64,000 nt of DNA from Tubulanus polymorphus (lineage: Eukaryota; Animalia; Nemertea). A program made the position numbers and the translations under genes. The notes beneath the pieces are model-generated. The model was not told the origin of the DNA and made no database searches. It was given only the letters and a program-made list of their open reading frames with translations. Each line of letters opens with the position of its first letter. Positions within the stretch are counted from its first letter, which is position 1. The DNA lies in assembly GCF_964204645.1 (NCBI RefSeq), contig NC_134030.1:4692778-4756777 (forward strand). The letters run 5' to 3'. Shown in pieces: positions 10,601 to 63,103 of this stretch.

Positions 10601-11584
10601 TACTGACGTAGTTAGGTGTATCATCGATATTTTGGAAACAGCTATATTTGCGGTGGTCCTTTAAAGAATTACTTATATTTGGCTGGTTCTATCGCTTGTT
10701 TGTGTTCGTTTATTCCATTCAATTATGACTATGTTTCTTCTGTGAAAATTCCTTCGAGAACAAGATCCATGAATGTTTATTTACTTATATAGATTTATAA
10801 AGTTGCTTAAGACCTAGTCCACGAGTGTTGGATTCGATGGGGTTTGCTGACGGTGTAAATCCCTGATTACCTATGACATGTTTGCAATGGTTCTCATGGG
10901 TTTTCAATCTAAGCACAAACCGATTTCCTGGCGACTCTCGAAACAGATCATCGGCAATAATTCCCATCATCTAACTTGATCAAGCGTGCTCCGATTGGGA
11001 TTGGTGGTGTCGCGCTGCTGGTGAGCTATACTTTCATTAGATAATATTGGTCATTGGTCACGGTAAGGCTCTACACATACCGCAATAATTATATGATTGG
11101 ATTTCAACTGTACAATGTGAATCTGATGTGCCATCGATCTATTTTGGAGTGCTGTTTTGGGAAGATACGTACCACAATGAGTGATTATTGAGGATTCATT
11201 GGGCACAAAGCCTTGCTTCGAATTGAACATATGACGTAACATCAAATTTTCAGTAGAACTAAAACTATATACCTATATCCAAAATGTCGCCCCTCACCGT
11301 TGTCTGAAGCATATTACATATATATTATATTTAGGTATGCCGATTTTGCTAGGAATAGCAAGAACAAAATCCTACTCGTTTCACAAATTATACGTGTTCG
11401 CAAATTATATACGTACAATATCATACGAGGAAAATTCAACACAACTGTGAAATTGTTATATGCATATACACCATCGAAGTATCATCATTTTATGATACAT
11501 TTTTCCACGCGTCGCATCATCGCTTTTTCAAGTCACTTCAACGGACCCAATCGACTTCGTGATTCAATACCGCTGAGTTTGAGT

Positions 11585-12616
11585 ATGACTGGAAACGTAA
11601 CTGTCGTCACCACTACGACGACTACTGTTACTACTCCGCAGTATGTTTGTCCATTAAACGGACTCCAAATACGAAAACATAAGCTTCAAATATACTTCAT
11701 TCTTCCCGTATGTATCATGGGAATATGCTTCAATATTTTCAGCTCCTTGGTTTTTAGGAAAATGTCTGATAGCGGGCAGGCAATGCGTCTCCTCATCCTC
11801 GTAGCACTGTCGGATATCATTTATCTTTCAAATACATTTTTAGACGGTCCGTTCCGTCATTTAATATTCAGAGCGATCTTCGGTGACCTCATGTTTTATC
11901 GACCAGATTTTGCGGTTTTTCCGCTGTGGAACTGGATACGAATTGCGTCCTACAAGTCGACAGTGACGATCCGCAATTGGATGGTAGTTCTAACAGCTGT
12001 CGTTAGATGTCTCCACGTGTTATTTCCGTTCTGGTCTCGGCGTTGTATCGATAAGAAACGGATCCATATTTGCACGTCCATTATTATTGTTATTTCGGCA
12101 GCTGTGTACGTGCCTCGTTATTTTGGTGGGAGAATAGGCACTGAAAAATGCCGCGGTGCTCCGCCACACTTTCCCCGTTTCAAGTTATTCAAACGAAGTA
12201 AAACCATTCATTACGTAGGCACTTGGATATATATGTTACTAACTATATCCATCCCAGCAGCGATTATCTTGTTCTCAAACGCAATTCTCTTATGGTCAGT
12301 ATACAGGTCGTTTCAACTACGAAAATCAATATCTACCGAAAAAAACAATGGACGTTCGTCCAGGAAGACTAAAGCGACACAACTAGTTTTAATAGCGACT
12401 TCTGTGTATCTGATTTGTGAATTACCACCTCTCATCACGAGGGTATGTAACTACTTCGTCAAAGTTAATTGGAATCCATTTCTGTTAGAAACTATATTCG
12501 TAGTTATAAATAATCTACCACCGATCGACTCGGCCATTAATTGCGTGATTTATTTACTTGCTAGTAGACAATTTCGGACAATGGCGAAAACGATGTGCTT
12601 TAAAAGTATTTCCTAA
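11585..12616 (+). CDS. Intronless class A (rhodopsin-like) GPCR, FMRFamide-receptor-like/orphan peptide or chemosensory type, copy 1
   Basis: Seven hydrophobic segments with GICFN (TM1), LVALSD (TM2), TAVVRCLHVLFP (DRY equivalent), ICELP (TM6), DSAINCVIY (NPxxY equivalent) and helix-8 QFR. In-frame ATG at 11585 precedes an N-glycosylated Thr-rich N-terminus; the ORF track's upstream TTG extension is not protein-like. Confidence 0.9.
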   Translation: MTGNVTVVTTTTTTVTTPQYVCPLNGLQIRKHKLQIYFILPVCIMGICFNIFSSLVFRKMSDSGQAMRLLILVALSDIIYLSNTFLDGPFRHLIFRAIFGDLMFYRPDFAVFPLWNWIRIASYKSTVTIRNWMVVLTAVVRCLHVLFPFWSRRCIDKKRIHICTSIIIVISAAVYVPRYFGGRIGTEKCRGAPPHFPRFKLFKRSKTIHYVGTWIYMLLTISIPAAIILFSNAILLWSVYRSFQLRKSISTEKNNGRSSRKTKATQLVLIATSVYLICELPPLITRVCNYFVKVNWNPFLLETIFVVINNLPPIDSAINCVIYLLASRQFRTMAKTMCFKSIS

Positions 12617-12814
12617 CTAACAATATAAACCTTTCGATTTGGGGTCATCCTTGAGTAACACGAAGTGTTGCCCTACCTATGTACCTTTCCTTCGTCCTTA
12701 ATCAACTACACTTCGGTTGTAGAATCGACTCTCTGTGTCGAAAGAATAGCATTGGGACAAATTACCACATCTATAGACTGTATTGTCTTTATTGTTTAGC
12801 AGAAAGGGGTATTT

Positions 12815-13025
12815 TTACAGTTTCGTTAGATCCGTTTCATTTGACTGAGTGCAGTACGATATCGACGAACATGAAAACTTGACTTCGTCAAGGTCTACGA
12901 GTTCATCGTTCACTTCATTGTCTAGATGAATCCCGATTACAAGAGGATACACGACAGTTGCGAACAGACTTCCGATCAGTGGTCCGATTAGCGGAATCCA
13001 AAACCAGCAGTTGTAGTTACGAAAA
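12815..13025 (-). pseudogene. Orphan duplicate of the aquaglyceroporin last exon (intact frame; possible alternative terminal exon)
   Basis: Reads FRNYNCWFWIPLIGPLIGSLFATVVY...LTKL*, near-identical to 20081-20288 with an in-frame 3-nt indel. Acceptor ttttcgcag is retained. No upstream aquaporin exons in this copy. Confidence 0.8.
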
Positions 13026-13305
13026 CTGCGAAAAGAAACGCAAAGATCATTTAACAAAGATAATTTCAAATATGCAAGATACAAATTAGTGGGGTGATGA
13101 TGAAGATGACTAAAGATTTTCTTATGGAACAAAAATTAAAATCTAGATGAAATTTTTAAAATATTTTCTATAGAAGATCATACACCAGAATATAATGCAA
13201 TGGCTTGAAAAAATGAAAAAAATAGAAAATGAAAATGGTGAAATAACTAAGAAAGATATAATAAAAAGAATTATTCCGTCAACATGTAACACAAAAGAAA
13301 AGTAA

Positions 13306-13680
13306 ATGTATTTATATTTATCATTTAAAGATTATTATTAGAAACCTTAATTAACAAAAGAAGATGTGGAAAATATAAAAGAAACATTCACAAACATATT
13401 AAAATATAATGTGCATATAAGAATAACAGATTCAATTAATTATGAATTCTTTTTAAATAAGATTGTAAATTTTTCAAACATCGATATTATAATTCCATTT
13501 GATGAATTAACAAACAAAAAGAAACAAAGAGACCGAGATGAAATGTGGTACAATATAGAACTTTATTTAAATGAGAAAAATGAAATGAAAGAACCTAAAG
13601 AAATTATAGAAAAACAATTAAATGAAAATGAAGAAACCACTAGTGATTTCGAGTATGATGATATTGATTTCATGTTTTAA
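13306..13680 (+). pseudogene. Unknown AT-rich gene of the Polinton-like fragment (frameshifted near 5' end)
   Basis: K/E/N/I-rich ORF 13366-13680 with an acidic tail. Its TAA overlaps the convergent PolB stop (ttaa, 13677-13680), a compact virus-like arrangement. Family not recognised. Confidence 0.45.
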
Positions 13681-16600
13681 TCACCATAAGGTAATGTTTT
13701 TATTCCATCACCCAAAATATGTCTTTTATCATCGAATGGATTTAAGCTAGTTTTTTCAACTTCATTAATGTACATCTCGTGATCTTCTGATCTGAAACAA
13801 TTAATTTTATGTTTCATTACAATTTAATTATATAAACATTTTATATTCTCTTGAAATTCTATATGTTTAGCAACCAAATGCTTTGTTATTCCTTTTAACT
13901 TTTTAGCTTCATGATCTTTTGTTCTATAACTATACATTTTACTTCTTATCCCAACAAATTCATGATAATTCATGATAAAATAATTCATGATCTTTTGGAT
14001 AATTGCTTAAGTCAAAATGATGTTTTAATGTTTTAAAAGTCTTTTGTTATATCATTTATTTTGATTTTTAGTATGTACGCATCCGTATTGACCGCTATTA
14101 ATGGAAATCCACAGTTAAGTTTCCCATCTTCAGTTGATAAATCATAAACATTATCTGATGGGTTATATATTTCAAATAAATCTTTAACTTCTTCAGTTAT
14201 TTCTTTTTCTGTATGCCTTAGATTAAAACAATTTGGCTTAGATTTAATCAATCCAATATTCATATCAAATTCTAATGAATTGCATAATATATTTTATCCT
14301 GCTAGAACAACTTTTCCTTTTTGAGCAAAAGATACTGATTTGTGGTTTTTACATCTTTTTGAACCATCTGCTGTGTAGAATCCTATAAAATACCATTTAA
14401 CATAATTATACACACCTGCTGAACCATCTCCCATAAAAAATCCTTTAATAAAATATTATTTTTCTTCTAATGTTTCTGGTTCTATATTATAGATATTATT
14501 AATTATTTCATCAAATGACATATGATTCATTCTTGGATAAAATCTTTTATGTAATAATTCATCTCCAATATTTATATCAGTTGGTTTTATTTCATCACCA
14601 TTTTGTTTAATTAAACTATGATCTTCAGTAACATCTACAAACCCTAATTTAGTTCTAACTCTATAAATCTTTTTATTTGTTTTATGTCTAATTATATTCT
14701 TTAATTTTTTCCATCCATTTCTTGTCCAAACATCCCTTAATCCATTTATTTGTATTAATTCTTTTTCACGATATGAAATATAAAGTTCATTTTGATTAGG
14801 CATTATTTCTGAAATTCTTCTTATTAATATTTGATTATCATATTTTAATAATATTAGAGTATCAGCTGTAACAGAATCAAAATATAATATTTCAATATGC
14901 TTTTCCCCAAAAAGTGGTTGTAAAACATTATAATAAAAATCATACATTAATAATTTTGATACTTCTAAAACAGTTGAACCTATGAGTATAGGTTTATTTA
15001 ATTTCATTGACGTTCTTTTTAATTTTACTGCTGTTAAATAATCTTCAAATCTTTTATTTCCTAAGTGGCTATGACTTGATTGTAAATGTCTCAATCGTTC
15101 AGAATTATTTACTAATTCAATTTCATTTCTATTTCTAATATTTTCACATGTTTTTCCATAAAAACTATTATGCATTAATTTTAAAAAACCTTTTTCAAAG
15201 TCTGTTTTAGATATTGTTCTCTGTTGAGTATTGAAATCTATATATTTTTCTAACCACTTCGATTGATTAAATTCAATATATCTATGTACTTTCTTTAATT
15301 TCATTCCTTGTTTTAGATAAAATTATAACATTCTTTAATGAACAATATAATTGTATTGATTATTTTGTGTTGATATTAATTTTTCAGTAAAAACATGATC
15401 TTTCGTTTGTATTTTTTTCTGATATTCACTTAGATAACTATCATCTACGGCTAAATGTTCTGGGCAATAAGGTAAGTTTCTTGTTTTAAACTTTATGTTA
15501 CCTGGATATTCTAAATCAACTACAAAGAAATAACCAATTGGAGCATCATCTTCTAAACTCATAATTGCGCTTTCCCAATTAGTTTTATCATCATTTTCAA
15601 CTTCTGTTAGTATAAAATTTTTATATGGTTGAGGTTGCATCATCGCCCAGCCATAAAAATTAGTTGCGTCAATATATAATAATTTATATTCATCATTTGC
15701 TTTAAAATACCTATCTCCCATAACACCACTAATTCCACCTATAATTAATTTTTCAAATAATAAAACTATGTCTGGTTCTTATAATACATCTAATTCTACA
15801 TTTGTATATTTTAAACCACATTGCCAAGTTGAACCGGGACTAGAGTAGCAATAACAAGGATCAATTTAAAATGATTTATATTAACTTCTCTAACTTTTTC
15901 AAATATGTCAGCCTATATCATAACATCTGATTTCAAGTATAAATCTACTAATTCACCATGATTTTTTACCTTAAAATGATTCCAAGTATTTAATGTTCTA
16001 TTAAAAACTTTCACATACTCATTTTTTAATTGATCATCAAATTGTTCTTTTAATAATTCTGTTACATCAAAATCATCGTGTGTTTTATAAAATGAATAAG
16101 GAATTGCACCTTTATATCTCAATAATTTAAAATCTTGTTAATTTGGATAATAATGTCGAGTAATAACAAAATCATTATCAACTAAACTTTTTCCTAAATT
16201 ATCTAATGAACTTGCTAGAAATCTATAAGAATCTAAGAATGTAATGCAACCAAATTGAAATGAAATACAATTTTCAGATGTTTTAGCTAATAGTTTAAAA
16301 TCATATTTTCTTACATTTTAATCATTTATAGCATTATATTCTTCTATTTCTTGATTAATTGCACCTAATTTTCCTGATAATTGTTTTATAAACAAGTGGG
16401 TATCATACCCTGATAAATTATGAAATAATATTGGTACGAAATCAACATTTTTAGCTTGTAAATTACAATCTTCATGAGCATCTCCACGATATTTTGAATT
16501 TAAATGATCATGACCTGTAACTTTTTTATCAAATGAATAAAAACGTCTTTCACAGTAACAACAATGAGTTGCATAATTAAAATCAATTTCATCTCCTTTT

Positions 16601-18397
16601 GTCATAACTATTCTTCTATTTTTGTTTAATAATTGTGCAAAATCACTTTCTAATTCAATTATTTTATTACAAAAATCATTTACTACATCTTCACCTCCTA
16701 AAGAAATATATTGACTTTCATATAATTCAGGATAATTTGATTTTATATAAATTCCATAAGCAGCAGCTCTTTGATGAACTTTATTAATTGTATTTATGAT
16801 TGGTGGGTCTTGAATAATGTCTTCATTTAATTCATTTCCTTTGTCCATTGATTTTAAAAATTGCTTTTTGTGGTATATTTCTTTTTTGATCAGTTAATAT
16901 TTTATTCAACGATTCAAAATCCCTACAAATTAGAAATGGCACTATATTTTTAAATTTATTATGCGTAAATCTCAATTCATAATCTTTTTCTGTTGGCATT
17001 ATAAATTTGCAAAAATCTTTATTATCACATAATTCTTTATGTTTTAATAATGCATTCTCAGTCAAAAATTTTGATAAACATTTTCTACATAGACAAATTT
17101 TACGATGGTGATCACTTTCTGTTCTAAAAAATAAATCTATTTGTTTTAACCACATAAAATGTTCATTTTCATCTTTCATCTTTATAACAAATCTATGACA
17201 TTTTCATCATCATAATATTCTGTTAAATATAAAGCTTCTAATGTATAATCTTTAATATTTTCACCTTTTGTCTCTGGTTATTGCATTAATTCGACAACAT
17301 TTATTTTTAAATTATTAACTTTTTCTATTTTAGGTATCATCTTTATAGTAACTGGATATTGGTCAATTTTATATAATGTTTCATATTTCCGGTAATCTGT
17401 TATTCTAAAACTATGCGTTATATCTTCTGTTGGGTATAAACAACTAATAATTGACCATAGAAAACATTTATTATCTTCATTTTGAACATTTATTACTGCT
17501 TTTGTTGTAAATGGTAATTTAATATAAGATGATGCTTTAATATCCTTTTCTGTTGTAAAGTTTGAATCATTTTTAAACATTTTATGACTTTTTGATGTTT
17601 TATCTCTTTTTGTATTATAAATATTTAAATCTAGAAATATAATTTCATCCAATGTTAAACCAGAACCCTCAAATATCTTTCCTCAATATGACGTTTGAAT
17701 TCATTAATTATTTTTTCTAATTTCTCTTTTATATGTGTTTCTGAAATTATTTCTTCAGAATATGTTTGAATATTATAATCCATTTTTTCTTCTGACGTTA
17801 TAAAACTTACTTTTCCAGAAATACTAATTTTTGGATAATCAACATCTGTAACAAAGTCAATTATTTTTTCCATTATTTCAATATATTTGCTATAATCTTC
17901 TCTTGTTGTACCTTTAAAAAATCCAAATAATATAGCTGCAGGACCAATTTTACTACGAAATGTTTCTAAAATTTCAATTGTATCTTTTATTTCTAGGGAA
18001 TCGATACAATTTCTAACATATTCCATATAAGGTTTATTTGAAATAGATTTAGTTTTTGAAGCTGGTTTTTTTACTTGTTGAGGTTTATCATCAAAATATT
18101 CTGTTCCTAAAATATTTTTATCTAAATTTTGTTGGTGTTTTTGTGATTCGAGATGTCTTTTATAATTCTTTTTTTTGCTATAAATTCATTACAAACATTA
18201 CATTTAATTTCATCTTCATTTAATCGTTCTTTTTTTCATTGGAATTTTCTGGAGTTTCAAAATCTATAACATTTTTTTTAATGATTTGCAATTTTTTCAT
18301 GTTGAGATTTATGTGATTAATCCATATATTTTTTACAATATGCACAATTATATTGATTTTTATTAACATCATTGTTTTCTGTCTGTCTCCCATTCAT
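13677..18397 (-). pseudogene. polB: Protein-primed family B DNA polymerase (pPolB, Polinton/adintovirus type), broken by several stops and frameshifts, intein-containing
   Basis: Motifs in order across ORF fragments: N-terminal C2H2-like fingers; SSYIKLP..VINVQNEDNKCFLWS; CRKC..H..LC; ExoI DFESL; HDH..KYRGDAHEDCNL; ExoII FHNLSGYD; FLDSYRFLASSLDKL; KGAIPY; ExoIII YLKSDV; GGISG; motif A DATNFYGWAM; motif B KLMHNSFYGK; motif C YFD|TDA; EFVGIRSKMY; KKLKGI; C-terminal FDDKRHILGDGIKTLPYGD*. Confidence 0.93.
14087..14875 (-). mobile_element. Intein (Hint domain) with degenerate LAGLIDADG homing endonuclease, inserted in PolB motif C
   Basis: 263 codons in one frame with two internal TAA (14456-58, 14294-96). 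Block A SVTADTLILL follows YFD; block B VDVTEDHSL; endonuclease motifs YFIKGFFMGDGS and YFIGFYTADGS; block F NVYDLSTEDG; ends LIAVN followed by extein TDAYILKI. Confidence 0.92.
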
Positions 18398-18474
18398 TAG
18401 GAAAAATTACTTATGGTGATGAGTGATTGTCGCTCTCTCGCTCTCTGGTATGAAACCCACATTCACCAATTACT

Positions 18475-20350
18475 AATGTGAATCTGGTGTGCCATCGATC
18501 TATTTTGGAGTGCTGTTTTGGGAAGATACGTACCACAACGAGTGATTATTGAGGACTCATTGGGCACAAGGCCTTGCTTGGAATTGAACATATGACGTAA
18601 CATCATATTTTCAGTAGAACTAAATCTATATACCTTTATCAAAAATGTCGCCCATCACCGTTGTCTGAAGCATATTACATATATATTATATTTGGGTATG
18701 CTGATTTTGCTAGGAATAGCAAGAACGAAATCCTACTCGTTTCACAAATTATACGTATTCGCAAATTATATACGTACAATATCATACGAGGAAAATTCAA
18801 CACAACTGTGAAATTGTTATATGCATACACCATCGAACATTATGGAATGGACTGGAAACATAACTGTCGTCACCACTACGACGACTACTGTTACTACTCC
18901 GCAGTATGTTTGTCCATTTCACGGACTCCAAATACGGAAACATAAGGTTCAAATATACTTCATTCTTCCCGTATGTATAATAGGAATATGCTTCAATATT
19001 TTCAGCTCCTTGGTTTTTAGGAAAATGTCTGATAGCGGGCAGGCAATGCGTCTCCTCATCCTCGTAGCACTGTCGGATATCATTTATCTTTCAAATACAT
19101 TTTTAGACGGTCCGTTCCGTCATTTAGTATTCAGAGCAATCTACGGTGACCTCATGTTTCATCGACCAGATTTTGCGGTTTTTCCGCTGTGGAACTGGAT
19201 ACGAATTGCGTCCTACAAGTCGACAGTGACGATCCGCAATTGGATGGTAGTTCTAACGGCTGTCGTTAGATGTCTCCACGTGTTATTTCCGTTCTGGTCT
19301 CGGCGTTGTATCGATAAGAAACGGATCCATATTTGCACGTCCATTATTATTGTTATTTCGGCAGCTGTGTACGTGCCTCGTTATTTCGGCGGGAGAATAG
19401 GCACTGAAAAATGCCGCGGCGCTCCGCCAAACTTTCCTCGTTTCAAGGTATTCAAACGAAGTAAAACCATTGATTACGTAGGCACTTGGATATATATGTT
19501 ACTAACTATATCCATCCCAGCAGCGATTATCTTGTTCTCAAACGCGATTCTCTTATGGTCAGTATACAGGTCGTTTAAACTACGAAAATCAATGTCTACC
19601 GAAAAAAACAATGGAGGTTCGCCCAGGAAGACTAAAGCGACACAATTGGTTTTAATAGCGACTTCTGTGTATCTGATTTGTGAATTACCACCTCTCATCA
19701 CGAGGATATGTAACTACTTCGTAAAAGTTGATTGGAATCCATTACTGCTACAAACTATATTCGTAGTTATAAATAATCTACCACCGATCGACTCGGCCAT
19801 TAATTGCGTGATTTATTTACTTGCTAGTAGACAATTTCGGACAACGGCGAAAACGATGTGCTTTAAAAGTATTTCCTAACTAACAATATAAACCTTTCGC
19901 TTTGGGGTCATCCTTGAATAACAACAAAGTGTTGCCCTACCTATGTACCGTTCCTTCGTCCTTAATTTACTACACTTCGGTTGTAAAATCGACACTCTGT
20001 GTCGAAAGAATAGCGTTGTAACAAATATTACAACATCTATAGTCTGTTTTATCTTTATTGTTAAGCAGAAAAAGGTATTTTTAGAGTTTCGTTAGATCCG
20101 TTTCATTTGACTCTGTGCAATACGAAAGCGACGAACATGAAAACTTCACTTCGTCGATGTCTACGAGTTCATCGTTCACTTCATTGTCTAGATGAATCCC
20201 GATTACAAGAGGATACACGACAGTTGCGAGCAGACCTCCGATCAGTGGTCCGATTAGCGGAATCCAAAACCAGTTGTAGTTACGAAAACTGTGAAAAGAA
20301 ACGCAAATATCATTTAACAAAGATAATTCAAATATGCGAGATACAAATTA
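18475..20350. repeat. Segmental direct duplication, copy 2
   Basis: Co-linear with 11114-13088. Its right side runs on into the intact aquaglyceroporin gene. Confidence 0.95.
18842..19879 (+). CDS. Intronless class A GPCR, copy 2 (paralogue of 11585-12616)
   Basis: Same 7TM motifs, about 20 amino-acid differences from copy 1 by eye. Start at ATG 18842 (MEWTGNIT) or 18821. Confidence 0.9.
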   Translation: MEWTGNITVVTTTTTTVTTPQYVCPFHGLQIRKHKVQIYFILPVCIIGICFNIFSSLVFRKMSDSGQAMRLLILVALSDIIYLSNTFLDGPFRHLVFRAIYGDLMFHRPDFAVFPLWNWIRIASYKSTVTIRNWMVVLTAVVRCLHVLFPFWSRRCIDKKRIHICTSIIIVISAAVYVPRYFGGRIGTEKCRGAPPNFPRFKVFKRSKTIDYVGTWIYMLLTISIPAAIILFSNAILLWSVYRSFKLRKSMSTEKNNGGSPRKTKATQLVLIATSVYLICELPPLITRICNYFVKVDWNPLLLQTIFVVINNLPPIDSAINCVIYLLASRQFRTTAKTMCFKSIS

Positions 20351-21461
20351 ACACATAAATAAGTGTAATGCCTTGCTTACCTGAATGTTTCTAGGCCCCA
20401 CCCGAAGATGGCTGTGAATATTCTGGGACCTAGATCTCTGGCAGGATTGATCGCGTAACCGCAATTATAACCGAACGAGATTCCCAAAAGAAATACGATG
20501 AATCCTACAATAACCGGCACGAGTCCTGATGATGGATTTACACCGTGTTTATGATCGGTTACAGCCAGTACGCAAATAACCAACAACATCGTACCAACTA
20601 TCTGAAATATGAAAACAAATTATTGCTCTATCAATTTGTACTTCATATTAAGATATGAAAATCAATTGCCCAAAACTACTGAAATAATTTATGAGTTTTA
20701 ATTTGACATTTACTTGATCGCCAAGTCCAGTTGCCCACGTAACGTGATCCAATGGATACGTGCTGAAAATACCGGCAGTTGCTAATGGTCCGGTCACACT
20801 TCTATTTCCACCATCAAAATTATTCAGTCCATCTATGGTAAAACAACGGGATCAGTTTCTCATAAGTTGATAGAAAGAACTTGTTATGTCTTTGAAGAAT
20901 TGTGGATTTTTTTCTTACCCAGATAAACGAAATAAACAAGTATCGAAGACAGAAAAGAGCCGATAGTTTGAGCGATGACGTATGCAGGTAAATAGCGCCA
21001 CCTGAGCTTCCCTAAAACTGCCATCGCGAGTGACACCGCTGGGTTCAAATGTCCACCTAGATAAAACAGACATCGATATAAAAGAAACGACTGTATCATC
21101 CTGAGCGGTGACATTGTGGCTGCGCAGGCCAATATACGTGACATGTTGTTGTAGTTGTACTTTACCAGAAGCTCCCGTTGATACAAACACTCCCATCGCT
21201 GCGCCCAGTCCGTACCCCCAGTTTACAGAAATATATGTCCCCATTTCCTTGTTGCTTAATACGGACTGCGCCACGGATCCATTGCCAAATGCCTGCAAAA
21301 ACGTATCGTTAAATAAATCGACCAAGCGCTGGAGGACATGGATACAGACAGAATCATTTACTTACGCAGAGCAAGCAAGTCCCTAGAATCTCAGCCAGAA
21401 ATGCCCTTCCAATTGGGCTTTTAATCGCGATTCTGTTTTTAAATCGGTCGTACCAAACCAT
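20081..21461 (-). CDS. Aquaglyceroporin (AQP3/7/9/10-like), 6 exons
   Basis: Exons 21461-21366, 21292-21166, 21056-20919, 20832-20714, 20601-20381, 20288-20081 with GT-AG sites and matching phases. Motifs AEILGT, SGGHLNPAVS, TAGIFSTYP, GYAINPARDLGPR (Asp after second NPA = glyceroporin), WFWIPLIGPLIG. Confidence 0.95.
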
Positions 21462-23997: not shown

Positions 23998-33986
<9,989 letters not shown>

Positions 33987-34273: not shown

Positions 34274-35248
34274 TCACCATTTTCGCGTACCACCGCATAC
34301 GAATATTGACCTAAGATCATTTCTAAAGCGTTTTCCACCTCCGACGCAGTACAACAAAAAGTTAATACCGTGGTTCACGTACAACATGTCATGCAAAATC
34401 TTTTCGATGGTGCCGTGGAACGTAAATGTTGCGCAGTTGGTCCTTTTAAGTTTAGGGTATATCGAATTGTAGACGAGTTTGATAGTGAACGGACTGACTA
34501 GAATCGTGAAAGTTATAGACACTAATAGCAGCGTCCTTGTTATTTGCGTTTCACTGAAACTGTCTTTGCCCTTAGCGCCCAGGTGTCCGTCGCTGGTTCG
34601 TCGTTTCCTGATACTTGCGATGATCAACACGTTACACATGAAGACGATCGCGCACGGTCCGACCGTATCAAACGCTAGTTTGACGACGGTGTCGACAAAG
34701 CGCACCGTAGCGGTAAACAGCTCGGAGCCGATGCACGTGTTCCAACCGGATAACACGTCGATTCCAGTCGTGAATACGAAAAAATAATGAAAGAACCGCG
34801 CCACCATGACTCCGTATAAAACCACCACTGAAATCTTGACATTGCGCATTCTGCATATTCGCATCGCTTTCAGCGGAAAAAGAGTCGCAATACTCCGCTC
34901 TATCGTCATGAAAGCTACTAACCACGCGGCCGTCGTGACGCCAAAACTGCCCAGAAATACACCCAGCTGACAGTAAAACGGGTGCGTATTAGTGTCGTGA
35001 ATACGCGCCGCCCACAGATAGTTGTGCAGGTACGACAGAAGTGGAATATTGTCGACGAAAGCAAGATTCGCCATCAGGAAACAGATCGAACTCGCGCGAT
35101 TCTTCTTCATAGTCATCACAGCCAGCGCCAGACAGTTACCGATAATACTAGGCACGACAAGCCCCATACGAATGTGCATGATGATGCCTTGGACATTGTC
35201 ACAGTTAAGCCGACTACTTTTCCCGGTTGTGGTGTTCGGATGCAACAT
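34274..35248 (-). CDS. Intronless class A GPCR, FMRFamide/peptide-receptor-like orphan
   Basis: IIGNCLAL (TM1), NLAFVD (TM2), FYC..AAWLVAFMTIERSIATLFPLKA (TM3), GPC (TM5), ILVSP (TM6), NHGINFLLYC..RFR (TM7/H8). First in-frame ATG is at 35248. Confidence 0.92.
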   Translation of the reverse strand: MLHPNTTTGKSSRLNCDNVQGIIMHIRMGLVVPSIIGNCLALAVMTMKKNRASSICFLMANLAFVDNIPLLSYLHNYLWAARIHDTNTHPFYCQLGVFLGSFGVTTAAWLVAFMTIERSIATLFPLKAMRICRMRNVKISVVVLYGVMVARFFHYFFVFTTGIDVLSGWNTCIGSELFTATVRFVDTVVKLAFDTVGPCAIVFMCNVLIIASIRKRRTSDGHLGAKGKDSFSETQITRTLLLVSITFTILVSPFTIKLVYNSIYPKLKRTNCATFTFHGTIEKILHDMLYVNHGINFLLYCVGGGKRFRNDLRSIFVCGGTRKW

Positions 35249-36148
35249 CCTCTTTTTCAAATCCCGCGCGAATGAAGGTGGAAGATCACTCTCAGTGTAA
35301 CTGAGAATGCGAACACGTTCTAATATCGGCGCATATTTACCCGTGAACGCCTCGAGCAACGGAGCTCAATAATTGCAGTCATTTTCGCAATATCGAAAAT
35401 CATTGAGAACAAAATTATTGCCATCTTCTAAAACGACGTATAAATAAGTACCAGCCAGTTTTACGACGTAAAACGTCAATCCAACCGGGTACGAAAAAAT
35501 TATCATTACATGTTACTTTAGAAAACTTCCGCGGGGAAGAAATCTGTACACAAGTGAAAATCAGGATCGATAACAAGGTGCTTTACCATCGTGTTGGAAC
35601 CTAAGTAGCACTATTCATATAACATTTTCACTTTAAGTTCAGTAAAATGACAAAGCTTTACTGACCGTAGGAAAAGTGGTGGCGCAGCCGAAGTTTATTC
35701 CTAATAAAACACATTACCTATGCTTTTCTTTTCTTTTTAATGAATATGTGGAACTTTGTCCTTTCGTTTTTTTTAAGTATCCTTCAGATATGTATAGGTA
35801 GTAAGAGATCTAGGTCATTTCAAACGGGTTAACTTTTTAATGATTGCTTCGTACTGAAAAGACCAAAATATTCAAACTCGTAATAATTTTCATAATTGAC
35901 CGTGTATATACCAGAGTATAGATATACTCGCTGGTAAATCTGATAGGCCTACACGCTGGATTTGTAGATATTAATCCCTGCAGCTCTGTGTGATATATGG
36001 ATTAACAATTCCAGTCTAATTAAAATCCGCACCGATGGTTTTGCAGCAGTGTTCTGGTATAAATAAAAGTTTGAATTTCCTCACGGAAATGCGCTTATAG
36101 TTAGGGACAGACCTCCGTTTGAATAACTCGTTGGCCTATGATGATATA

Positions 36149-38096
36149 ATGCGATGCAGTCAAGATATGTCAGGAGAAAGTGAATTATTTTGTCCTGAAT
36201 CGGTGGAGTGGCCAGGACTGCGTGTTCCGTGCGGATCTATAGTAGTGGCGATAGACATAGGTAAGTGATAAAAACGTCAACACTTAGAAAAATTTGCTCA
36301 AAATATACCCGAGGTTCGTCTTAAATCGACAAAAATGCAAGCGAAGATTTAGGGGAACTTGGCGGCGAGATACGACGATATTGATACTAGCCATCGTATT
36401 GAAAGAATATTTTCCAGGGAAAATCAACAATTTTTTTCCTCTAAATCTTAGGATGTAGTCTCATAAAGCTATGCCATTTAGTGGACGATTTGTGTACTGG
36501 TAAAAACGCAGCGGCGGACCTGCAAGAACCGTGTATACATTGTGAAAAGGTATCGTACATATTTCATTTACGAATAGATTCTTGAATATCAACATATGGT
36601 ATCAAAGAATTCATTCAATTTTTAGCAAGAAATCGGGTCAAACGTTCGAATGAATTTCATCAGTTTGAAAAACTCCGACATCGAAAAATGCATGCAGTAT
36701 ATAAAACAGTTGATGGAAACGACAAGAAAAAAACCAGTGATAATCGGGCTCGGAGTTGGCACGTTAAAACACAGAGAACGAATCAAATCTGAACTACGAG
36801 TCGAGTAAGAAAACCTCGGAATAACCTCGCAATAATCTATTGCGTTACGAATAATTATACATGCTAATTCATATTCATTAGGCTTCAGGAAAGCGATGAA
36901 TTCAAATGCTTCGCGAAAGCATTTCACAGCATCTTGGAAAATCAACAGTTGGCGGCATCGTTTGTGCTGCCTTCCGTTGATCCTGTAATCGACCACAGAC
37001 AGTTCGGTCTGGCTCAACCAACTCCGGATAACTCTCAAACGAACGACGATCAAGCGGATGAAATATTTCCTGCCATATTATGCGTATTGGGCTCCACGGC
37101 TAACTTTCTCAAAGTATGTCCTATACGTGTATACGTTGAAAAAAAATAACCGTCAATTTCCTTGTTATTCCAGTCCCCCGCAAAATTACATTTTTCATCC
37201 AGATTGACGCCGATGGAAGTTACACATATCTACACAACGTGAAACGGTGCGGTGTATTTTTCTATTCACTAGGCAAAATACTAACTGGTTGTGAGGTTAG
37301 TTAATTCAAAATTCGTGACGTGTCACATTGCAAAGTATGACGTCATTGCTCATAATTTTCAGACCTATGAAGAGTTGATGTCGCTGACGCGTGAAGGACA
37401 CGCCCCTAATTTAACAATCTGCTTGGACGAAATACTGACGGAAAAATACGGCGATGTTGATGGTGTTAGATTGAGCAAATCGCTTCAAAGTCTCGATTTC
37501 CGGGCAGAAACGTTGCCTTTCGGTCGGCTGATAAAAGATGGTCAGTTTCAACAGGTTATTCCCATAAACAAGAAACTCGATGACGCTGCTATGCACTATA
37601 ATCGCGAAAGCTTGTACTTCAAATAAATCTAGTTAACTTTCAAAGGTCTACTTAAAAAGAAACTTTTCTCGCAAAAGGCCGCTTTATTGATGGCGCATGG
37701 GTCTCCTTCGTCTGAAATTTATCATATTGTAGATTCATTGAAACCAACTAGAGAAGATATGGCCAGGGCTTTACTTCATACAGTTGCTGACGGTGTTATG
37801 GACGTAGCTGTGTTGCTCGCGAAGGAAACACGACTACGCCGGGTGTACTTCGCCGGATCTTTCCTTCGCGAAAATTTTCCCGCACGAGATTACCTTTCGC
37901 AAATGCCATACGCATCTATGGTGAGACCGTACACAGATCGAAACTTTCGCAAATGAGTTTAATTGTGGACTTTCTTTTTCACTAAATGGGTTTTCTTACA
38001 TTTCAGAATCGTTGGATGGTTAATGCCCGGTTTTTACGCCATGATGGTTATATTGGGGTGATGGGAGCCGTTTTGAATTGCGTAGGAAGTCAATGA
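36149..38096 (+). CDS. Divergent type II (fumble-family) pantothenate kinase-like protein, ~8 exons
   Basis: Spliced translation AIDIG|CSLIKL, MNFISL, GLGVGTLKH, SDEFKCF, FPAILCVLGSTANFLK, LGKILTGCE|TYEELM, PFGRL, REDMARALL, RVYFAGSFLR, ARFLRHDGYIGVMGAVL follows the eukaryotic PanK motif order. Confidence 0.82.
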
Positions 38097-42990: not shown

Positions 42991-45381
42991 CTAGTAGGTT
43001 GAAGTCGAAGAAACATTACTATTTTTACTATGAGGAAAGAATTTCGTGTTTATGAAACCCATATCTGCTTGCCATCGATAGTTATCGCTATTAGTATTGA
43101 ATATCTTATTCAGGACATAGAACGGACGGAATCCAATTTCTAGGGTTTTTTTCATATCTGCAGCGTACTGCCCCATGCTGAATCGTTTTTCTCCGAATAC
43201 GTGGTATTCGACTAGGTACTGTTTTACGATGTTTATCGTACCGTCTGACAATATATTATGCAGGACGTCGAATTCTGTGCCTTCGATATCGATTTTAAAG
43301 AAGTCGATAATCCTCTGAAAATACAACAAATCAACGAATAAATCGAATAAGGAATTCTTGAAATACGATTTTATGATTTACGTTTTTGAAATGAAGGATT
43401 CGAACCTGAATGATCATATATGACATAATTCCGATATATCGGAAAGAGAATTGCAACGAACATCTTCGTTCTTTTGAACTTACGTTCTCCCGTTTTACCA
43501 TTTTCAGAATGGATCTTACAGTTCGAACCTTCCATACTTGATCTGATTCGACGTATTCATCCTTTCTCGGAATAAAACTATCAGTGTCTGATCCACCAAC
43601 TCCCAGATCGTAAAACCAGACTTTTTTCGAATGTCTATGATCCGGTTTATTCATGCTATGATTAGGACGAAAAAACAAAATATAAAGAACATGTAATTTG
43701 CGTGTGAACGCGCTCTCTAATTAGGCACGGTCCAAATTTGGCCAGAGCCTGATCGGTGTCAATTTAGCCTGGGCCAAATCTTCTCCGTGTGATCGCGGCT
43801 ATAGAAATGTCTTAATCGCACATTAATTTTTGGTACGCGTAAAATCAATTTACGGGTATTGCTTATTACGGGTTTTACTACCTCGGATCAAACGCGTAGA
43901 CTTCACATCCGAATTTTTCCATTTGATCATCAAACTGCCATAAATTAGCGATCCTGCGTCAGATAGAAATAAGAAACAAAATATGATATATAAAATATAT
44001 GCGCCGGGTAACCCCGGAAGCCTTCTTTGTGCTATAGGGATCGGGACACACGTGTTTCGAGTTCTGGAAACAGTGCGGAATAGTTGAATGAAATATCAAG
44101 TGCCCAACACACACGAGGCCCGGAACGCTCGGAAACATGTTTCCGTCTGCTGTTTCCGTGTTTCAATGCGTCGTTTAAGTTGGGCTTAATCAAGCTATTA
44201 CTACATTACGTACCCGAATGAAAGAGCCAAACAACCAGGTTTAGGTGCAAACGGTTCATCGTGACAAACGTACCAGCTTCCTTCTCCACCCTCGCCATAA
44301 ATTTTACGATTTTTACACGTATACATGGGGCCTTTATTCATGTACCTAGTGTTAGAAAACAACGCAATCCATCAATGTAATAACACTAATTGTTATAATT
44401 GCTCACTCTTCTGAACCCTCTAGCTTACTCATATAAACTCTCCTGAAATTATCAAAAATCATCAACTTTCATTTCCTTCCCCTTTATTTCTTCATTTCCC
44501 TATCGTTTTTTTCCCTGGGTGCTTGCGACAGCGGCCTAAAGGCTTTGCTTGGCCCACACTGAAAGCTACTGTTCTCTCTCTCTTTTTATAATTGTGCTTT
44601 GTTTAAAAAAATTGTAAATTTTATTTTCTCTCAACCTGTGTACATAGCCTGTCATGCTTTCTGTGAAATAAATTTGAACTTGAACTTGAACTTGAACGCA
44701 TTGTTAGAACTATACGATATACACGGAAGCATAGATACATTGAGTTTAGAGGCTAACAGAAATATTAATCATCCGCTCTATAAAACACACACACCCTTTG
44801 ATTAAAGCCTCGCCTTCCCACCATTTCAGCGCAGATACACTTCCTGAAGAATAAAGCGAAAGAAATATTTCGAGATGTTTTCGCGGGGGTGAACCTAGAT
44901 ATTTTGAATTGGACAACACCTCCTAGGCCTTGTACATACATTACAGTACACGAAGAGCGAACACAGATAATGGGGTTTGGGCCCTCCCCAAGTGAGTATG
45001 TATACACATAATCGTATGAAGCTTTTATTCGATAAAAAATAGCGATTAAATGCGCGATAAAGAGTAATAGAAATTGAGGAAAAAATTCTTTTCATTGATT
45101 TATAAAAAAATGGCAAATGAATAAAACTTTGAATGTAACGCATATTTCCAGAATAGATAAAATGTATGTGCACAATCGATCTGCCGTTATTTACTCATCT
45201 GTCATTATCGTTATTATTTTAAACAGCTTTAGCAAATGTAATACGTGCATTCTTTCGACAAAATGTGCATTATCCTGGTGATACAAAATGTTACCTTACC
45301 GGGTTGTTGAGCTTCTGTAGACTTAGCACCAGCTAGATTGATAATGGCATACCGTAACGTCGATTCTTTACTTAGCAATTG
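42991..45381 (-). CDS. METTL24-like (Methyltransf_22/FkbM-type) methyltransferase; 5' exon(s) not located
   Basis: Exons give CKNRKIYG..GEGSWYVC..CLALSFG|IANLWQFDDQMEKFGCEVYAFDP|SM..VWFYDLGVG..VRTVRSI|IIDFFKIDIEGTEFDVL..VKQYLVEYH. Assignment of the upstream exons (~44795-44843, 45300-45381) is less certain. Confidence 0.83.
44500..44697 (+). mobile_element. Probable 3' end of a non-LTR retrotransposon (CR1/L2-like tail)
   Basis: AATAAA followed by (TTGAAC)x4. No ORF remnant identified and the left limit is approximate. Confidence 0.4.
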
Positions 45382-45593: not shown

Positions 45594-46288
45594 GCCGGGC
45601 GTAGGTTGGCCTTGCGACGCGACGCGATCGTCGCGTTGCGTCATAAGTGGCCGCGCAAGTCGGTTGCGATGCGGTTTTCAGCGACTGTGTGCGACTAGTT
45701 GCTGCACGGTCGCGTCGCGTCGCAGAAAGTAGAACATGTGCGACTCATTGCGACTGGCGTCGCTGGCAGTCGCAACCCCGCAAGGTAGCGTAGGTCGGTG
45801 AGTCGTTGCGACGCGAACGTCGCTGGCGGTCGCAGTGAGTCGCAAGCCGTCGCAAGGCCGACCTACGCCCGCCTTAAGAGGAGTGGGTAAACCTATAGAA
45901 AAGTTCGTATTTCGCATCCAAATGGCTAGAGTTATACTTGATCAAAAGCTGCCACTTGGATGCGAAATAACTACTTATCTATAGGTTTACCCGCTCGCTT
46001 AAGGCGGGCTTAGGTCGGCCTTGCGACGGCTTGCAACTCACTGCGACCGCCAGCGACGATCGCGTCGCAACGACCAACCGACCTACGCTACTGCCAGCGA
46101 CACCAGTCGCAATGAGTCGCACATATTCTACTTTCTGCGACGCGACGCGACGCGACCGTCACAACCGACCTGCGTGCTGTTGCGACTGGCAGCAAGTAGT
46201 CGCACACAGTTGCTGACAACCGCATCGCAACCGACTTGCGCGGCCACTTGTGACGCAACGCGACGATCGCGTCGCGTCGCAAGGCCGA
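45594..46288. repeat. ~700-bp imperfect palindrome: two inverted MITE copies around a palindromic spacer
   Basis: 45594-45873 has its own ~26-bp TIRs (GCCGGGCGTAGGTTGGCCTTGCGACG / CGTCGCAAGGCCGACCTACGCCCGCC). 46003-46288 is its reverse complement. The spacer arms 45880-45927 and 45951-45996 also pair. Confidence 0.88.
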
Positions 46289-54900: not shown

Positions 54901-57900
54901 ATCCCCTTGGAAATGCCCCTGAACTAGATGAGACAAAAATCTGTATTTTGTGTGTATTTTTGAGAAACTGTATTTGTTTCTTACCCATCATGCGTCTCTG
55001 TTGACGCTGTTTCCAACCACACATAACCATGAATATGACGAGTAGTAACATCATTACTCCGAGTACAATACCGAGTACCATATACAACAGAGTGCTACTC
55101 GACTGAGTACTCAATTTCCTCTCGACGAAATCATCATCAGTATCCTTGGTCTGTTCAAAAAGAAAATCTTAGTCTCAGAATCTCATTAACTAGCTGAAAA
55201 ACTAACCATCGAAAAAAAGACATTTTTGAGAAATGTACCTTATTATTTTTTACCTTATTCACGATATCAAAAATGTTGATATCTTTAGAAATGTGGCCGT
55301 GACCGTGGCGATTGATTCCAAATGTGTTACTGTGATGATTGTGCGCGTGGTCATGGTGCGATGTGTGGTCATGTTTCGAGTCAACTACTGGGAATAAGCC
55401 TGTTTTTGGTTTGCCATCGACAGCTGAAAAACGCAAACAATCCTAACCCATTAACGCCTCATTCAGGGTTCAATGTCTGATAAGCCGCTATTCTGATAGA
55501 GCATTCAAAAAACACATGGTCCCTACTAAGAAGACCTACTTTTATGACCTTCCCAAATATCTACGTATATATATATAAGTATGAATGTAAATACCTACAG
55601 TATGTTCAATATCATATTGATTGGAAACTTTTCATATTTGAAAAAAGACATCCCCGAAGTAGGGATGCCCTCTTAAAAAAGAAATTAATAATGCAGCTAA
55701 TACCTCCAACATCTTAACTATCATTTTAGAATCAAAACCTATCTGCTCACTTACGTAAAGTACGTTTAACAACTGTATTGCTGAAGTCGCTAGCTCCCGC
55801 CGAGTTGAAACACTTCATTTTGATCTGATATTCCGTATCCGGAAGCAACTGAGACAATACGTGTCGCACGTGTTGACCTCCGAATATTGTACGGCGAATA
55901 TAATCCTCGCCTGAGTCAAACGGGCGATAAAATATCACAAATCCTTCGATAGCCATCGTGTCGATCATTAGATGCTAAAAACATTACAAAAAGCAAGAAT
56001 TAATGTTGAGAAATGGGTGCTTCATTGAAGTGAACATCACACTACAGGGAGATTTCAACATTTTAGTGGTGACTGGTAGATAAAGATGATTTTCAAGAAA
56101 GATTGCTGAAGAAAGGACCCTTTGGGCAAGCAATTGATGACTCAGAACTATTATTCTAGATGGGTACAAAAAATTTTCAATATTTCTGAATATTCTGAAA
56201 ATCTATCAAATTCCCAAAGGAAATTTTGAAATTCCTAAGTTTTTCCAATTTCCTAGTACTGTGGAAAACATCGAGAGAAAGAAATTTGAGTTAATGATTT
56301 CTTTTAGTTCTAACACAAACCTTCCATCGCAGTGCTATTGCTCCTCCTGGTAATGGATTGACCTCAACTATCACTGGCCCAGCTACCGGACGTTTGGGCC
56401 GATGTGCTGGTACTGCTTCCAACATAAACTTGTCAGATTTCGCTCCATCTTTGTTGTCGTTGTTGCTATAAACAGCCACAATGCGGAATCTATACGTATC
56501 ACCTAAACACAGAAAATAATTGTTGAGTACAACACATACAAGATGAAGTCATATCTCTTTTTCTTGAACATTAGAGTTCAATTCAACTAGGAATGTCAAT
56601 GAAATCTCCTGTACCTGGTTTTAACCCTTTCACTTCGTATTTGCGGTGACTATCAGCTATGTCCTCGTCAATTGTGTGCCAAGTCGCTCGTTTTTTCTTC
56701 TTGCGATTTTTATGGATCGTGCGGTATTGAACGCGGAAGAATGCGATCGGCAGACCGTCATTCAGCGGTACGTCCCACTGGAGCATTACCGACGTGTCTG
56801 ATAGTTTACTGACTTCCGGGCGAGATGGTGGAACCATTTTCACTATGAAATAGAATATAAATTATTATGAAGACATATATTCGATATCCTGGACACAGGT
56901 TCAGGTTTTGAGTTGAGATTGTAAACTAGAGTTAGGCAAGAAAACAAGTAGTATAAGTAGGTCAACTGATCTTATCAGAAACCATGAGCTTTCACTATCA
57001 ATGTGTGGTAGCTTCATCAGATGATCAGGTAAATTTCGAATAATATCAACATGACCTACATGTACCGGTACTAATTGTTTTCTCATTAAAATTGATAACC
57101 AGGTTAACATGGCTCATCTTCAAATCTACTCCAGAGGTAGCTAAATGATAATAAACTAATTCTAACCCAACAGCTAATTCACATCTGTGGAACCAGGTTA
57201 CACTGAACTGTACAAAGCATCATATAAACAACAATAATTCGTATTAAGTCTATACACAGTTTCACAATTTTTGATTCACAGTTTTCATTATGAACTGACC
57301 TGGTACAATCGACGATGGATTCTCTACGTCTGCTGCGGTCGGTTCTTCATCGACGTGTATGATCGACGGTCGTCCTCGATTCCGATTTTTCTTGTTCTTT
57401 CGTTTTTTGTTCTTTTTCTTCTTGTTCCGTCGGCGGCCGGCGCCACCTCGGTTACCGCCGCCGGCGTTCTCGCCGAATTTCGCCATCGACGACGACGTAG
57501 GGTCAGAGAGGTCGTAGTCTCCGTCGAGCGATCCCCAATCGTCATCATCGATATCATCGACCTCGTCACCTCGCACAACCTCGTTATTCAACGATGCATC
57601 CGTTTCATCATTATAATCTTCCTCCCCCCAATGATCGGGTAAAATTCTATCATCTTCTTTAACTCTATTATTCACAGACTCATTATTTCCATCATTGAAC
57701 GTTTCTCCATTATCATTCCCTTTATCATTACCGTACTCATAATCAGCATCTTCGTAATCATCCACATTTTTCTCTTTATTATCCTCATAATTATCAGGAA
57801 CCACTGGGTCTGGCTCCTCGACTCCTTCGGGTCGACCTCGTTCGTCGAAATACTCCTTTACAAATTTATTGTCGTCTGACTCTGATTGCTCCTTAGTAGC

Positions 57901-62996: not shown

Positions 62997-63103
62997 CTGA
63001 AATATAGAAAAAATATACTCAATGATTGTCAAATTCGTTTCTTTAATTTCTTTATTTGCTATGGACTGGATACAGCAAGCACCTTGCTTTTATCAATAAT
63101 AAT

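Follow-up and report, generated by a model that had tools for sequence, protein, structure and literature searches.

Inteins at the pol-c position (site III) of DNA polymerase B (PolB) are already known from Nucleocytoviricota, for example in Mimivirus R322 (PMC549080, in the accessible part of that paper), in HaV01 and in Pandoravirus. These inteins are inserted in motif C, carry Ser1, a terminal Asn, a +1 Thr, a TxxH motif and a LAGLIDADG endonuclease, and are about 340-355 aa long when uninterrupted. The archaeal pol-c inteins, such as PI-PkoII (PDB 2cw7), share the site (YGD|TD) and the architecture. As far as the accessible texts go, a eukaryote-wide survey lists inteins from fungal and protist nuclei, plastids and NCLDVs, with only Hedgehog/Hint domains in metazoans (PMC5784728, PMC7765530), and reviews confine inteins to prokaryotes, unicellular eukaryotes, fungi, plastids and large DNA viruses (PMC7765530, PMC5784728). 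Virus-linked spread and non-allelic spread of inteins have been described in Anaeramoeba (PMC10710043), in a study whose accessible text contains polinton, metazoa and protein-primed 0 times.

For the protein-primed DNA polymerase B (pPolB) of polintons, one sentence in the accessible text of Krupovic et al. (PMC11071308) suggests that nuclease insertions stem from intein invasions. HNH and VSR insertions in Polinton and adintovirus pPolBs were described by Jeong et al. (10.1101/2023.08.22.554363), in whose accessible text 'LAGLIDADG' has 0 occurrences, and 'intein' has 0 occurrences in that of the adintovirus paper (PMC8502044). The literature searched contained no account of a Polinton pPolB with an intein; subscription journals, InBase and supplements, which lay outside that search, could hold one.

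Here, we report a known intein allele in a host protein class and a host kingdom for which no described case was found. The locus lies in a window of 64,000 nucleotides, the whole stretch of DNA that was analysed. With the Nucleocytoviricota pol-c inteins it shares the features given above, whereas its host is a pPolB in animal nuclear DNA, it belongs to a clade of its own, and the window copy is a pseudogene that has lost the middle of its endonuclease. The archaeal pol-c inteins match by profile (E=9e-10), but they are distant and form the outgroup in the tree. The HNH and VSR insertions likewise place a nuclease domain in pPolB; in the accessible text, however, no splicing domain is described for them, whereas here a full predicted Hint splicing domain lies in the active site and empty alleles exist. 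Virus-linked spread into eukaryotic nuclear DNA and non-allelic moves are shared by the inteins that reside in the nuclei of fungi, algae and Anaeramoeba (PMC5784728, PMC10710043), but the accessible text of those surveys lists no metazoan carrier and no pPolB, whereas here a mobile element of an invertebrate genome carries the intein. In the present case, inteins occur in multi-copy elements of animal DNA, though they are usually called absent from animals. Overall, the window intein is best explained as a decayed pol-c copy in motif C of a Polinton-type pPolB. The ancestor of this intein probably passed a single time, in the distant past, from a giant-virus polymerase into the pPolB family and likely spread afterwards among the elements through homing.

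The window intein and its host gene

The sequence at 14875-14087, read on the minus strand, was confirmed to be a LAGLIDADG-type intein in motif C. Its 263 codons (14087..14875, minus strand; Ser1 to Asn263, +1 Thr) are inserted in frame between YFD and TD of motif C of PolB, the catalytic site (pol-c site YxD|TD). The insert starts with SVTADT directly after YFD and ends with IAVN directly before TD. The class 1 intein residues are all in place, namely S1, T83 and H86 of the TxxH motif, N263 and T+1, and the block WTRNGW..IIRHKTNKKIYRVRTKLGFVDVTEDHSL was found as well. In the splicing domain, the TxxH of block B (TEDH, 14618..14629, minus strand) is invariant across alignment A2. The blocks F/G (14087..14146, minus strand) have a short 'CGFPLI.xN' end. 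The same end recurs in the inteins of pPolBs, of one giant-virus subgroup and of three T4-like phage polymerases.

In Pfam, the window intein matched Intein_splicing (E=1.9e-6, 28 bits; curated cut-off 35.8 bits) as well as LAGLIDADG_3 (E=0.002), both matches falling below the curated cut-offs. A Hint fold was predicted by a model from an 11-row alignment (pLDDT 76; 33 for the single-sequence model). This model had 22 PDB matches at E<=0.001, those listed being inteins and the best being 7qst (E=1e-8). Its named viral fold matches were giant-virus polymerases, from Megavirus, Pithovirus, Pandoravirus, HaV01, Marseillevirus and Klosneuvirus.

The endonuclease is heavily damaged. Alignment A2 shows that LAGLIDADG motif 1 (block C, 14420..14455, minus strand) and LAGLIDADG motif 2 (block E, 14360..14395, minus strand; also matched by Pfam LAGLIDADG_3) are both kept, and that 91 residues between them are absent. 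The junction of this in-frame deletion of about 91 codons, which removed the endonuclease middle and block D, lies at 14396..14401 (minus strand), as indicated by alignment A2 and by reads of other copies. In addition, two in-frame stops are present at 14456-14458 and 14294-14296. Because of the two stops and the 91-residue loss, the window intein is unable to be produced or to home. These results show that the window copy is a dead, pseudogene intein.

The host gene is a broken Polinton-type pPolB gene (13683..18376, minus strand), which was delineated by tblastn with P0392, an uninterrupted database protein, at 40-81% identity. Its reading frame is split into 7-8 pieces, and the 7 stretches in which stops were counted contain 14 of them. 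The protein-primed PolB family PF03175 matched the window piece below the cut-off (E=7.7e-5) and matched the intein-bearing relatives P0002 (5e-17) and P0003 (9e-32). The closest insert-free relatives, with an 83% identical extein (P0122), are empty and read YFD|TD at the same place; hereafter, filled and empty denote exteins with and without the intein at YxD|TD.

The preliminary description, made from the sequence alone, had placed the intein at exactly these coordinates, with an SVTxDT start, a WTxxGW block and an AVN end, and had taken its host for a protein-primed polymerase. Both assignments are borne out, the latter by PF03175, by the P0122 extein and by the extein tree. It had also read the lack of a penultimate His as a giant-virus sign. 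A penultimate His is usual in class 1 inteins, but it is not obligatory. The lack is real, the window residue being Val, yet the ten pPolB inteins with a C-end have H in 5, K in 3, S in 1 and V in 1 (the window copy), and the 187 other pol-c inteins include 88 with H, 70 with K and 3 with V. As H, K and V all occur among pol-c inteins, the penultimate residue was dropped as a marker of origin.

Filled and empty copies in the same species

Other copies of the AT-rich island that contains the gene are known through raw reads, mainly of run X5 from another study with the same species label, of which 12% was read. At 80% likeness, the depth was 542-557 just outside the N-terminal end of the intein and 220-265 within it. 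Position 14876, the first base outside the intein, is where 112 reads depart from the window sequence, and 68 reads skip the intein. These counts give about 45% of the copies as filled and the rest as empty, a rough estimate with related subfamilies mixed in.

The damage to the intein is largely private to the window copy. At the deletion junction (14398-14399), 142 reads of other copies depart from the window sequence, and at the two stop codons 244 of 249 and 112 of 114 reads differ from it. Since nearly all reads differ there, the stops and the deletion belong to the window copy or to a few copies.

We also observed that window 14039-14398 fits the reads of other copies less well, that 270 reads depart at 14038, and that CpG is unusually frequent at the 3' splice junction. 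Two subfamilies may have recombined to give the window copy, in which case the endonuclease deletion would mark the point where they join.

A family of intein-bearing protein-primed polymerases

In a search of 5.8 billion proteins, the best matches of the window intein were pPolBs with the same insert, which took ranks 1-10 and 12 among the best 120 listed (345-151 bits). The same intein was found in at least 17 protein clusters with a visible pPolB extein and in contig L018; three further fragments (P0221, P0238 and P0293) were assigned to pPolB by similarity only. P0002 is 63% identical to the window intein over 255 columns. When uninterrupted, the pPolB inteins are 333-354 aa long with a complete endonuclease, which is full-length in P0002-P0009. 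From their motifs, we infer that these uninterrupted relatives undergo protein splicing, and they are candidate splicing and cutting tools evolved in animal nuclei. The extein tree comprises 77 exteins, 61 of which are empty at YxD|TD and 16 of which are filled.

Other databases yielded few relatives. No relative was found in the viral contigs searched with P0392 and P0002, P0002 had no match in the plasmid records, and the phage records gave only two weak matches. The metagenome search returned one pPolB locus among its best 80 loci, namely L018, which is 4.2 kb long and contains the polymerase alone. The GTDB genomes gave 29 loci, among which the archaeal ones were weak and three were stronger (L177-L179); these three look like viral contigs misbinned into GTDB genomes.

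The intein-free near relatives P0392, P0123-P0125, P0130 and P0132 and their cluster members sit in many cases on contigs of 4.6-7.2 kb, approximately the size of the island, and P0122 sits on 16.9 kb. The element may be a short unit of a polymerase and one ORF.

Two Polinton-type polymerases carry bacterial names, P0424 (Ca. Thiodiazotropha, from a lucinid clam) and P0129 (Sulfurimonas). A bacterial origin on the basis of these source labels was rejected, as both probably represent host DNA that contaminates MAGs. P0424 is a hint that the intein is also present in a bivalve.

Phylogenetic placement and the probable donor

In a FastTree phylogeny of 278 inteins, all 18 pPolB rows formed one clade (98*). 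The same clade was recovered by IQ-TREE from 45 selected rows (6 of 6 pPolB inteins, 100/100) and from 48 selected rows with seven archaeal pol-c inteins as the outgroup (100/99). The two smaller trees were calculated with LG+G4, without the long-branch P0086 and P0090, the phage rows P0080/P0093/P0101 and redundant rows. In the 48-row tree, the pPolB clade lies within three nested starred nodes of giant-virus-type pol-c alleles (96/96, 95/95 and 99/95). This nesting was recovered separately by the splicing-only (154 columns, 98*) and endonuclease-only (203 columns, 97*) trees. The pairwise scores of the window intein were 352-194 bits (median range) against other pPolB inteins, up to 163 bits against giant-virus-type alleles, 145-150 bits against T4-like alleles, and at most 50 bits against 10 archaeal alleles.

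Within this nest, the pPolB clade is the sister of a giant-virus clade with a short motif, not a part of it, and the pairing is weak in the whole-intein trees (81/71). The short motif is a C-terminal block G that is one residue shorter, with a 20-residue spacing. It was present in 10 of the 11 pPolB rows measured, the eleventh being a fragment without a C-end, and in 26 of 207 other pol-c rows. None of the 8 pol-b and none of the 20 topoisomerase II inteins had it, although the 20-residue spacing also occurs in 4 of 10 archaeal alleles. Among 80 viral contigs, the short-motif loci were all on giant-virus MAG contigs (10 of 10). The genes near these loci include P8 minor capsid protein, RFC-like ATPase, WLM and MscL, neighbours which we take to be typical of Imitervirales.

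The pPolB inteins are 41-45% identical to the short-motif giant-virus and T4-like inteins, whereas the corresponding exteins align only at chance level. Therefore, a lateral move happened whatever the root, and the transfer of the intein between unrelated polymerases is well supported by these comparisons. A giant virus is favoured as the donor. It is the likeliest donor, but not the sole option, because T4 gp43-like phage polymerases carry the same subtype.

The preliminary description had assigned the intein to the giant-virus pol-c type, matching it to Mimiviridae/Phycodnaviridae, and had proposed a jump from an NCLDV polymerase into a protein-primed one. The giant-virus type stands, on the scores and the nesting given above, but neither of the two families could be attached to the sister group. 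Grouping with archaeal alleles, which would have spoken against the assignment, is far off, whereas T4-like phages do share the subtype, and a T4-like sister of the pPolB inteins was not rejected by the AU test (p=0.124).

The direction of transfer could also have been the reverse or indirect, the short-motif subtype having been born in, or passed via, Polinton-type elements or phages before it reached giant viruses. The sister-group position is compatible with such a route, and trees in which the pPolB inteins branch off outside the giant-virus alleles were not rejected by the AU test (p=0.11 with a pol-b outgroup, p=0.145 with an archaeal outgroup). In addition, the T4-like scores come near the best giant-virus score, and three long-branched phage alleles, when kept, adjoin or fall among the pPolB inteins (278-row and quick 69-row trees). 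Conversely, all of the outgroup layers around the short-motif clade are of the giant-virus type in the 48-row tree, and giant-virus-type alleles make up about 215 of the 278 rows, as against 6 rows of phage alleles in two tight clusters. We consider the reverse or indirect route unlikely, although it retains some weight.

The T4 gp43-like phage polymerases with the short-motif pol-c intein are P0016, P0213 and P0216 (phrog_262, E 1e-77 to 1e-163). Their inteins group with the giant-virus subgroup in the 45- and 48-row trees, and an intein exchange between giant virus and phage is likely. A second phage-like PolB group (P0080, P0093 and P0101) has a more distant pol-c intein. Closely related inteins, nested among the pol-c inteins, were also observed in type II topoisomerases (P0040, P0052, P0054 and 17 more) at TDQD|TDG and TEGD|SAA, sites that look like motif-C mimics.

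Age of entry and signs of homing

The Beta-like pPolBs (the Alpha and Beta labels were deduced from the accessible part of PMC8502044) and P0002 show intein identities of 46-50% and extein identities of 41-50%. Furthermore, three pPolB intein subgroups follow three extein clades. That the intein has diverged as much as the extein and that its subgroups follow the extein clades point to an old entry of the intein. The transfer was probably ancient, into an ancestor rather than into the window element; a jump into the window element itself is contradicted because the nearest relatives form one old pPolB intein clade. Thus, of the jump proposed in the preliminary description, the lateral transfer holds and the recipient does not. 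The separate intein and extein trees that it had called for give a similarly divided outcome: the best trees nest the pPolB inteins among giant-virus pol-c alleles as it predicted, with alternative placements not rejected by the AU tests, but these inteins form an old pPolB-specific clade whose three subgroups track the extein tree, which is part of what it had named as counter-evidence. Contact with giant viruses is debated for animal Polintons, and the allele that giant viruses and Polinton-type elements have in common provides a dated marker of it.

At the level of close relatives, the distribution of the intein is patchy. The 16 filled exteins among 77 require 12 changes, at least 9 of which are forced by starred branches, in counts that do not distinguish gain from loss. 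Filled and empty alleles occur together in 90% clusters, with exteins that are 97-99% identical. Between P0364 (filled) and P0367 (empty), 6 of 746 extein residues are different, and all of these lie away from the site. For P0004 (filled) and P0359 (empty), the count is 22 of 1191 residues; 12 of the 22 lie at -6..+39 of the site, and in this region six filled members differ from P0004 at just 1-3 residues. Such clustering at the site would be expected either from co-conversion or from resistant empty sites. These near-identical filled and empty pairs, together with the site-clustered differences, point to homing of the intein among element copies. With filled and empty copies side by side in one genome, homing among repeated elements can be put to a direct test.

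A jump over a larger distance is suggested by P0003, whose extein is unalignable to the others and whose intein is 42-49% identical to theirs. Because of this disparity, at least one jump occurred between deep pPolB classes; its exact position is not fixed, as monophyly of the pPolB inteins without P0003 was not rejected by the AU test (p=0.208).

The three matched subgroups and the similar divergence of intein and extein in Beta-like pPolBs would also be expected if the intein had been inherited vertically from a pPolB ancestor and lost precisely many times, with little or no present homing, and the change counts are blind to gain and loss. The P0003 intein, however, requires a lateral move. 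In addition, most members keep a full-length endonuclease, and the keeping of a full-length homing endonuclease needs a supply of empty sites. The coexistence of filled and empty alleles at 97-99% extein identity, and within one species, also argues against such inheritance, which we regard as improbable.

That the window element received its intein recently and directly from a giant virus, during virophage-like co-replication, is very improbable. The allele is of the giant-virus type, and, in the accessible text of PMC11296320, Polinton-like viruses (PLVs) travel with entomopoxviruses and occur with giant viruses in animals, gene flow included. However, the pPolB clade largely refutes such a jump, the nearest relatives being pPolB inteins rather than viral ones, and the equal divergence of intein and extein described above is that of long residence. 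The GC content is also the same in the intein (0.246) and the extein (0.24), a weak clue as the donors are AT-rich too. Moreover, the subtype reached T4-like phages as well, which means that helper-type contact is not required.

A proposed route for capture and spread

Ancient capture followed by homing could have proceeded as follows. An uninterrupted intein would excise itself and restore the catalytic YxDTD of the polymerase, as judged from Ser1, TxxH, Asn and the +1 Thr. The splicing domain would be under selection as long as the element replicates, because a failure of splicing would kill the polymerase. The donor would have been a giant virus of the short-motif subgroup, and this first capture is the least certain step. 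For this capture, the shared YxDTD codons would have had to be cut or broken, and the lesion repaired with hardly any homology. When compared with 13 viral loci, the flanks of the window site agree at only 9-14 of 18 bases on the upstream side and at 7-9 of 18 bases on the downstream side. A match of this extent is too small for ordinary homologous repair, and therefore a rare microhomology-type event would be needed. The case shows that very limited DNA homology may suffice for a LAGLIDADG intein to enter a new protein family. Donor and target would have had to meet in a single cell on one occasion, and that cell may have belonged to a protist or to another animal. Virophage-like dependence would be unnecessary, and the virophage-like contact suggested in the preliminary description is hypothetical.

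After capture, the LAGLIDADG endonuclease would cut empty copies, and repair from a filled copy in the same nucleus would spread the intein, in line with the filled and empty pairs, the patchiness and the site-clustered differences. At least one later jump would have led into the very distant pPolB class of P0003. The window copy later lost the middle of its endonuclease and became a pseudogene. More broadly, we lean slightly towards the view that a homing lineage captured from giant viruses still invades empty Polinton-type copies in animal nuclei, as a natural gene drive in a transposon family. This lineage would have crossed two deep pPolB classes, and the allele would hop among giant viruses, T4-like phages and pPolBs via the few shared motif-C codons.

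The AT-rich island and its surroundings

The host gene lies in an AT-rich island (13089..18474), with a GC content of 0.24 as compared with 0.385 in the rest of the window. In run X5, the read depth is approximately 250-350 on the island and 10-21 on its flanks, that is, at least 15-fold higher, and the copies are mostly 90-95% identical; island sequence is also present in runs X1-X3. These results indicate that the island is a decaying multi-copy family in the species. The island could have been an artefact, that is, contaminating viral DNA or a misassembly, given the sharp GC contrast, its position between two near-identical host blocks and the fact that none of the listed reads and contigs could be shown to bridge its ends, but its many stops and frameshifts, its depth in X5 and presence in X1-X3, copies that resemble a decaying repeat family and the location of many relatives on contigs of 0.1-1 Mb make this extremely improbable.

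No integrase (rve), capsid, packaging ATPase or protease was found in the island pieces or in 70 other stop-free window segments of at least 85 codons, a search that short or decayed genes could escape. No terminal inverted repeats were found between the island ends, and the copy may be truncated; nor did the island show a short target-site duplication as in Polinton/Maverick. Nor was a capsid or integrase gene observed next to any of the intein-bearing pPolBs, and the label 'Polinton-type' therefore rests on the polymerase. A small convergent ORF of 109 stop-free codons (13351..13680, plus strand) has the read depth of the rest of the island and had no family match.

The window is invertebrate animal DNA, as judged from its Srw-type GPCRs and its Ig/FN3, lectin and aquaporin exons. 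To the left of the island lies a host block (11114..13088, plus strand) that contains an Srw-type GPCR gene of a single exon, and to the right lies a copy of the same block (18475..20350, plus strand), which is 95% identical to the left one. These two 2 kb blocks are direct copies on either side of the island, and the duplication may be linked to the insertion. Further host genes are located at 20887-21222, 25341-31515, 34274-35359, 37633-37953, 42994-43377 and 56586-63018 and comprise an aquaporin, C-type lectin/WSC exons, another GPCR, a pantothenate kinase, an FkbM methyltransferase and Ig/FN3 exons. In addition, an imperfect palindrome of 680 bp at window 45608-46286, with a self-match of 79%, is possibly a miniature transposon.
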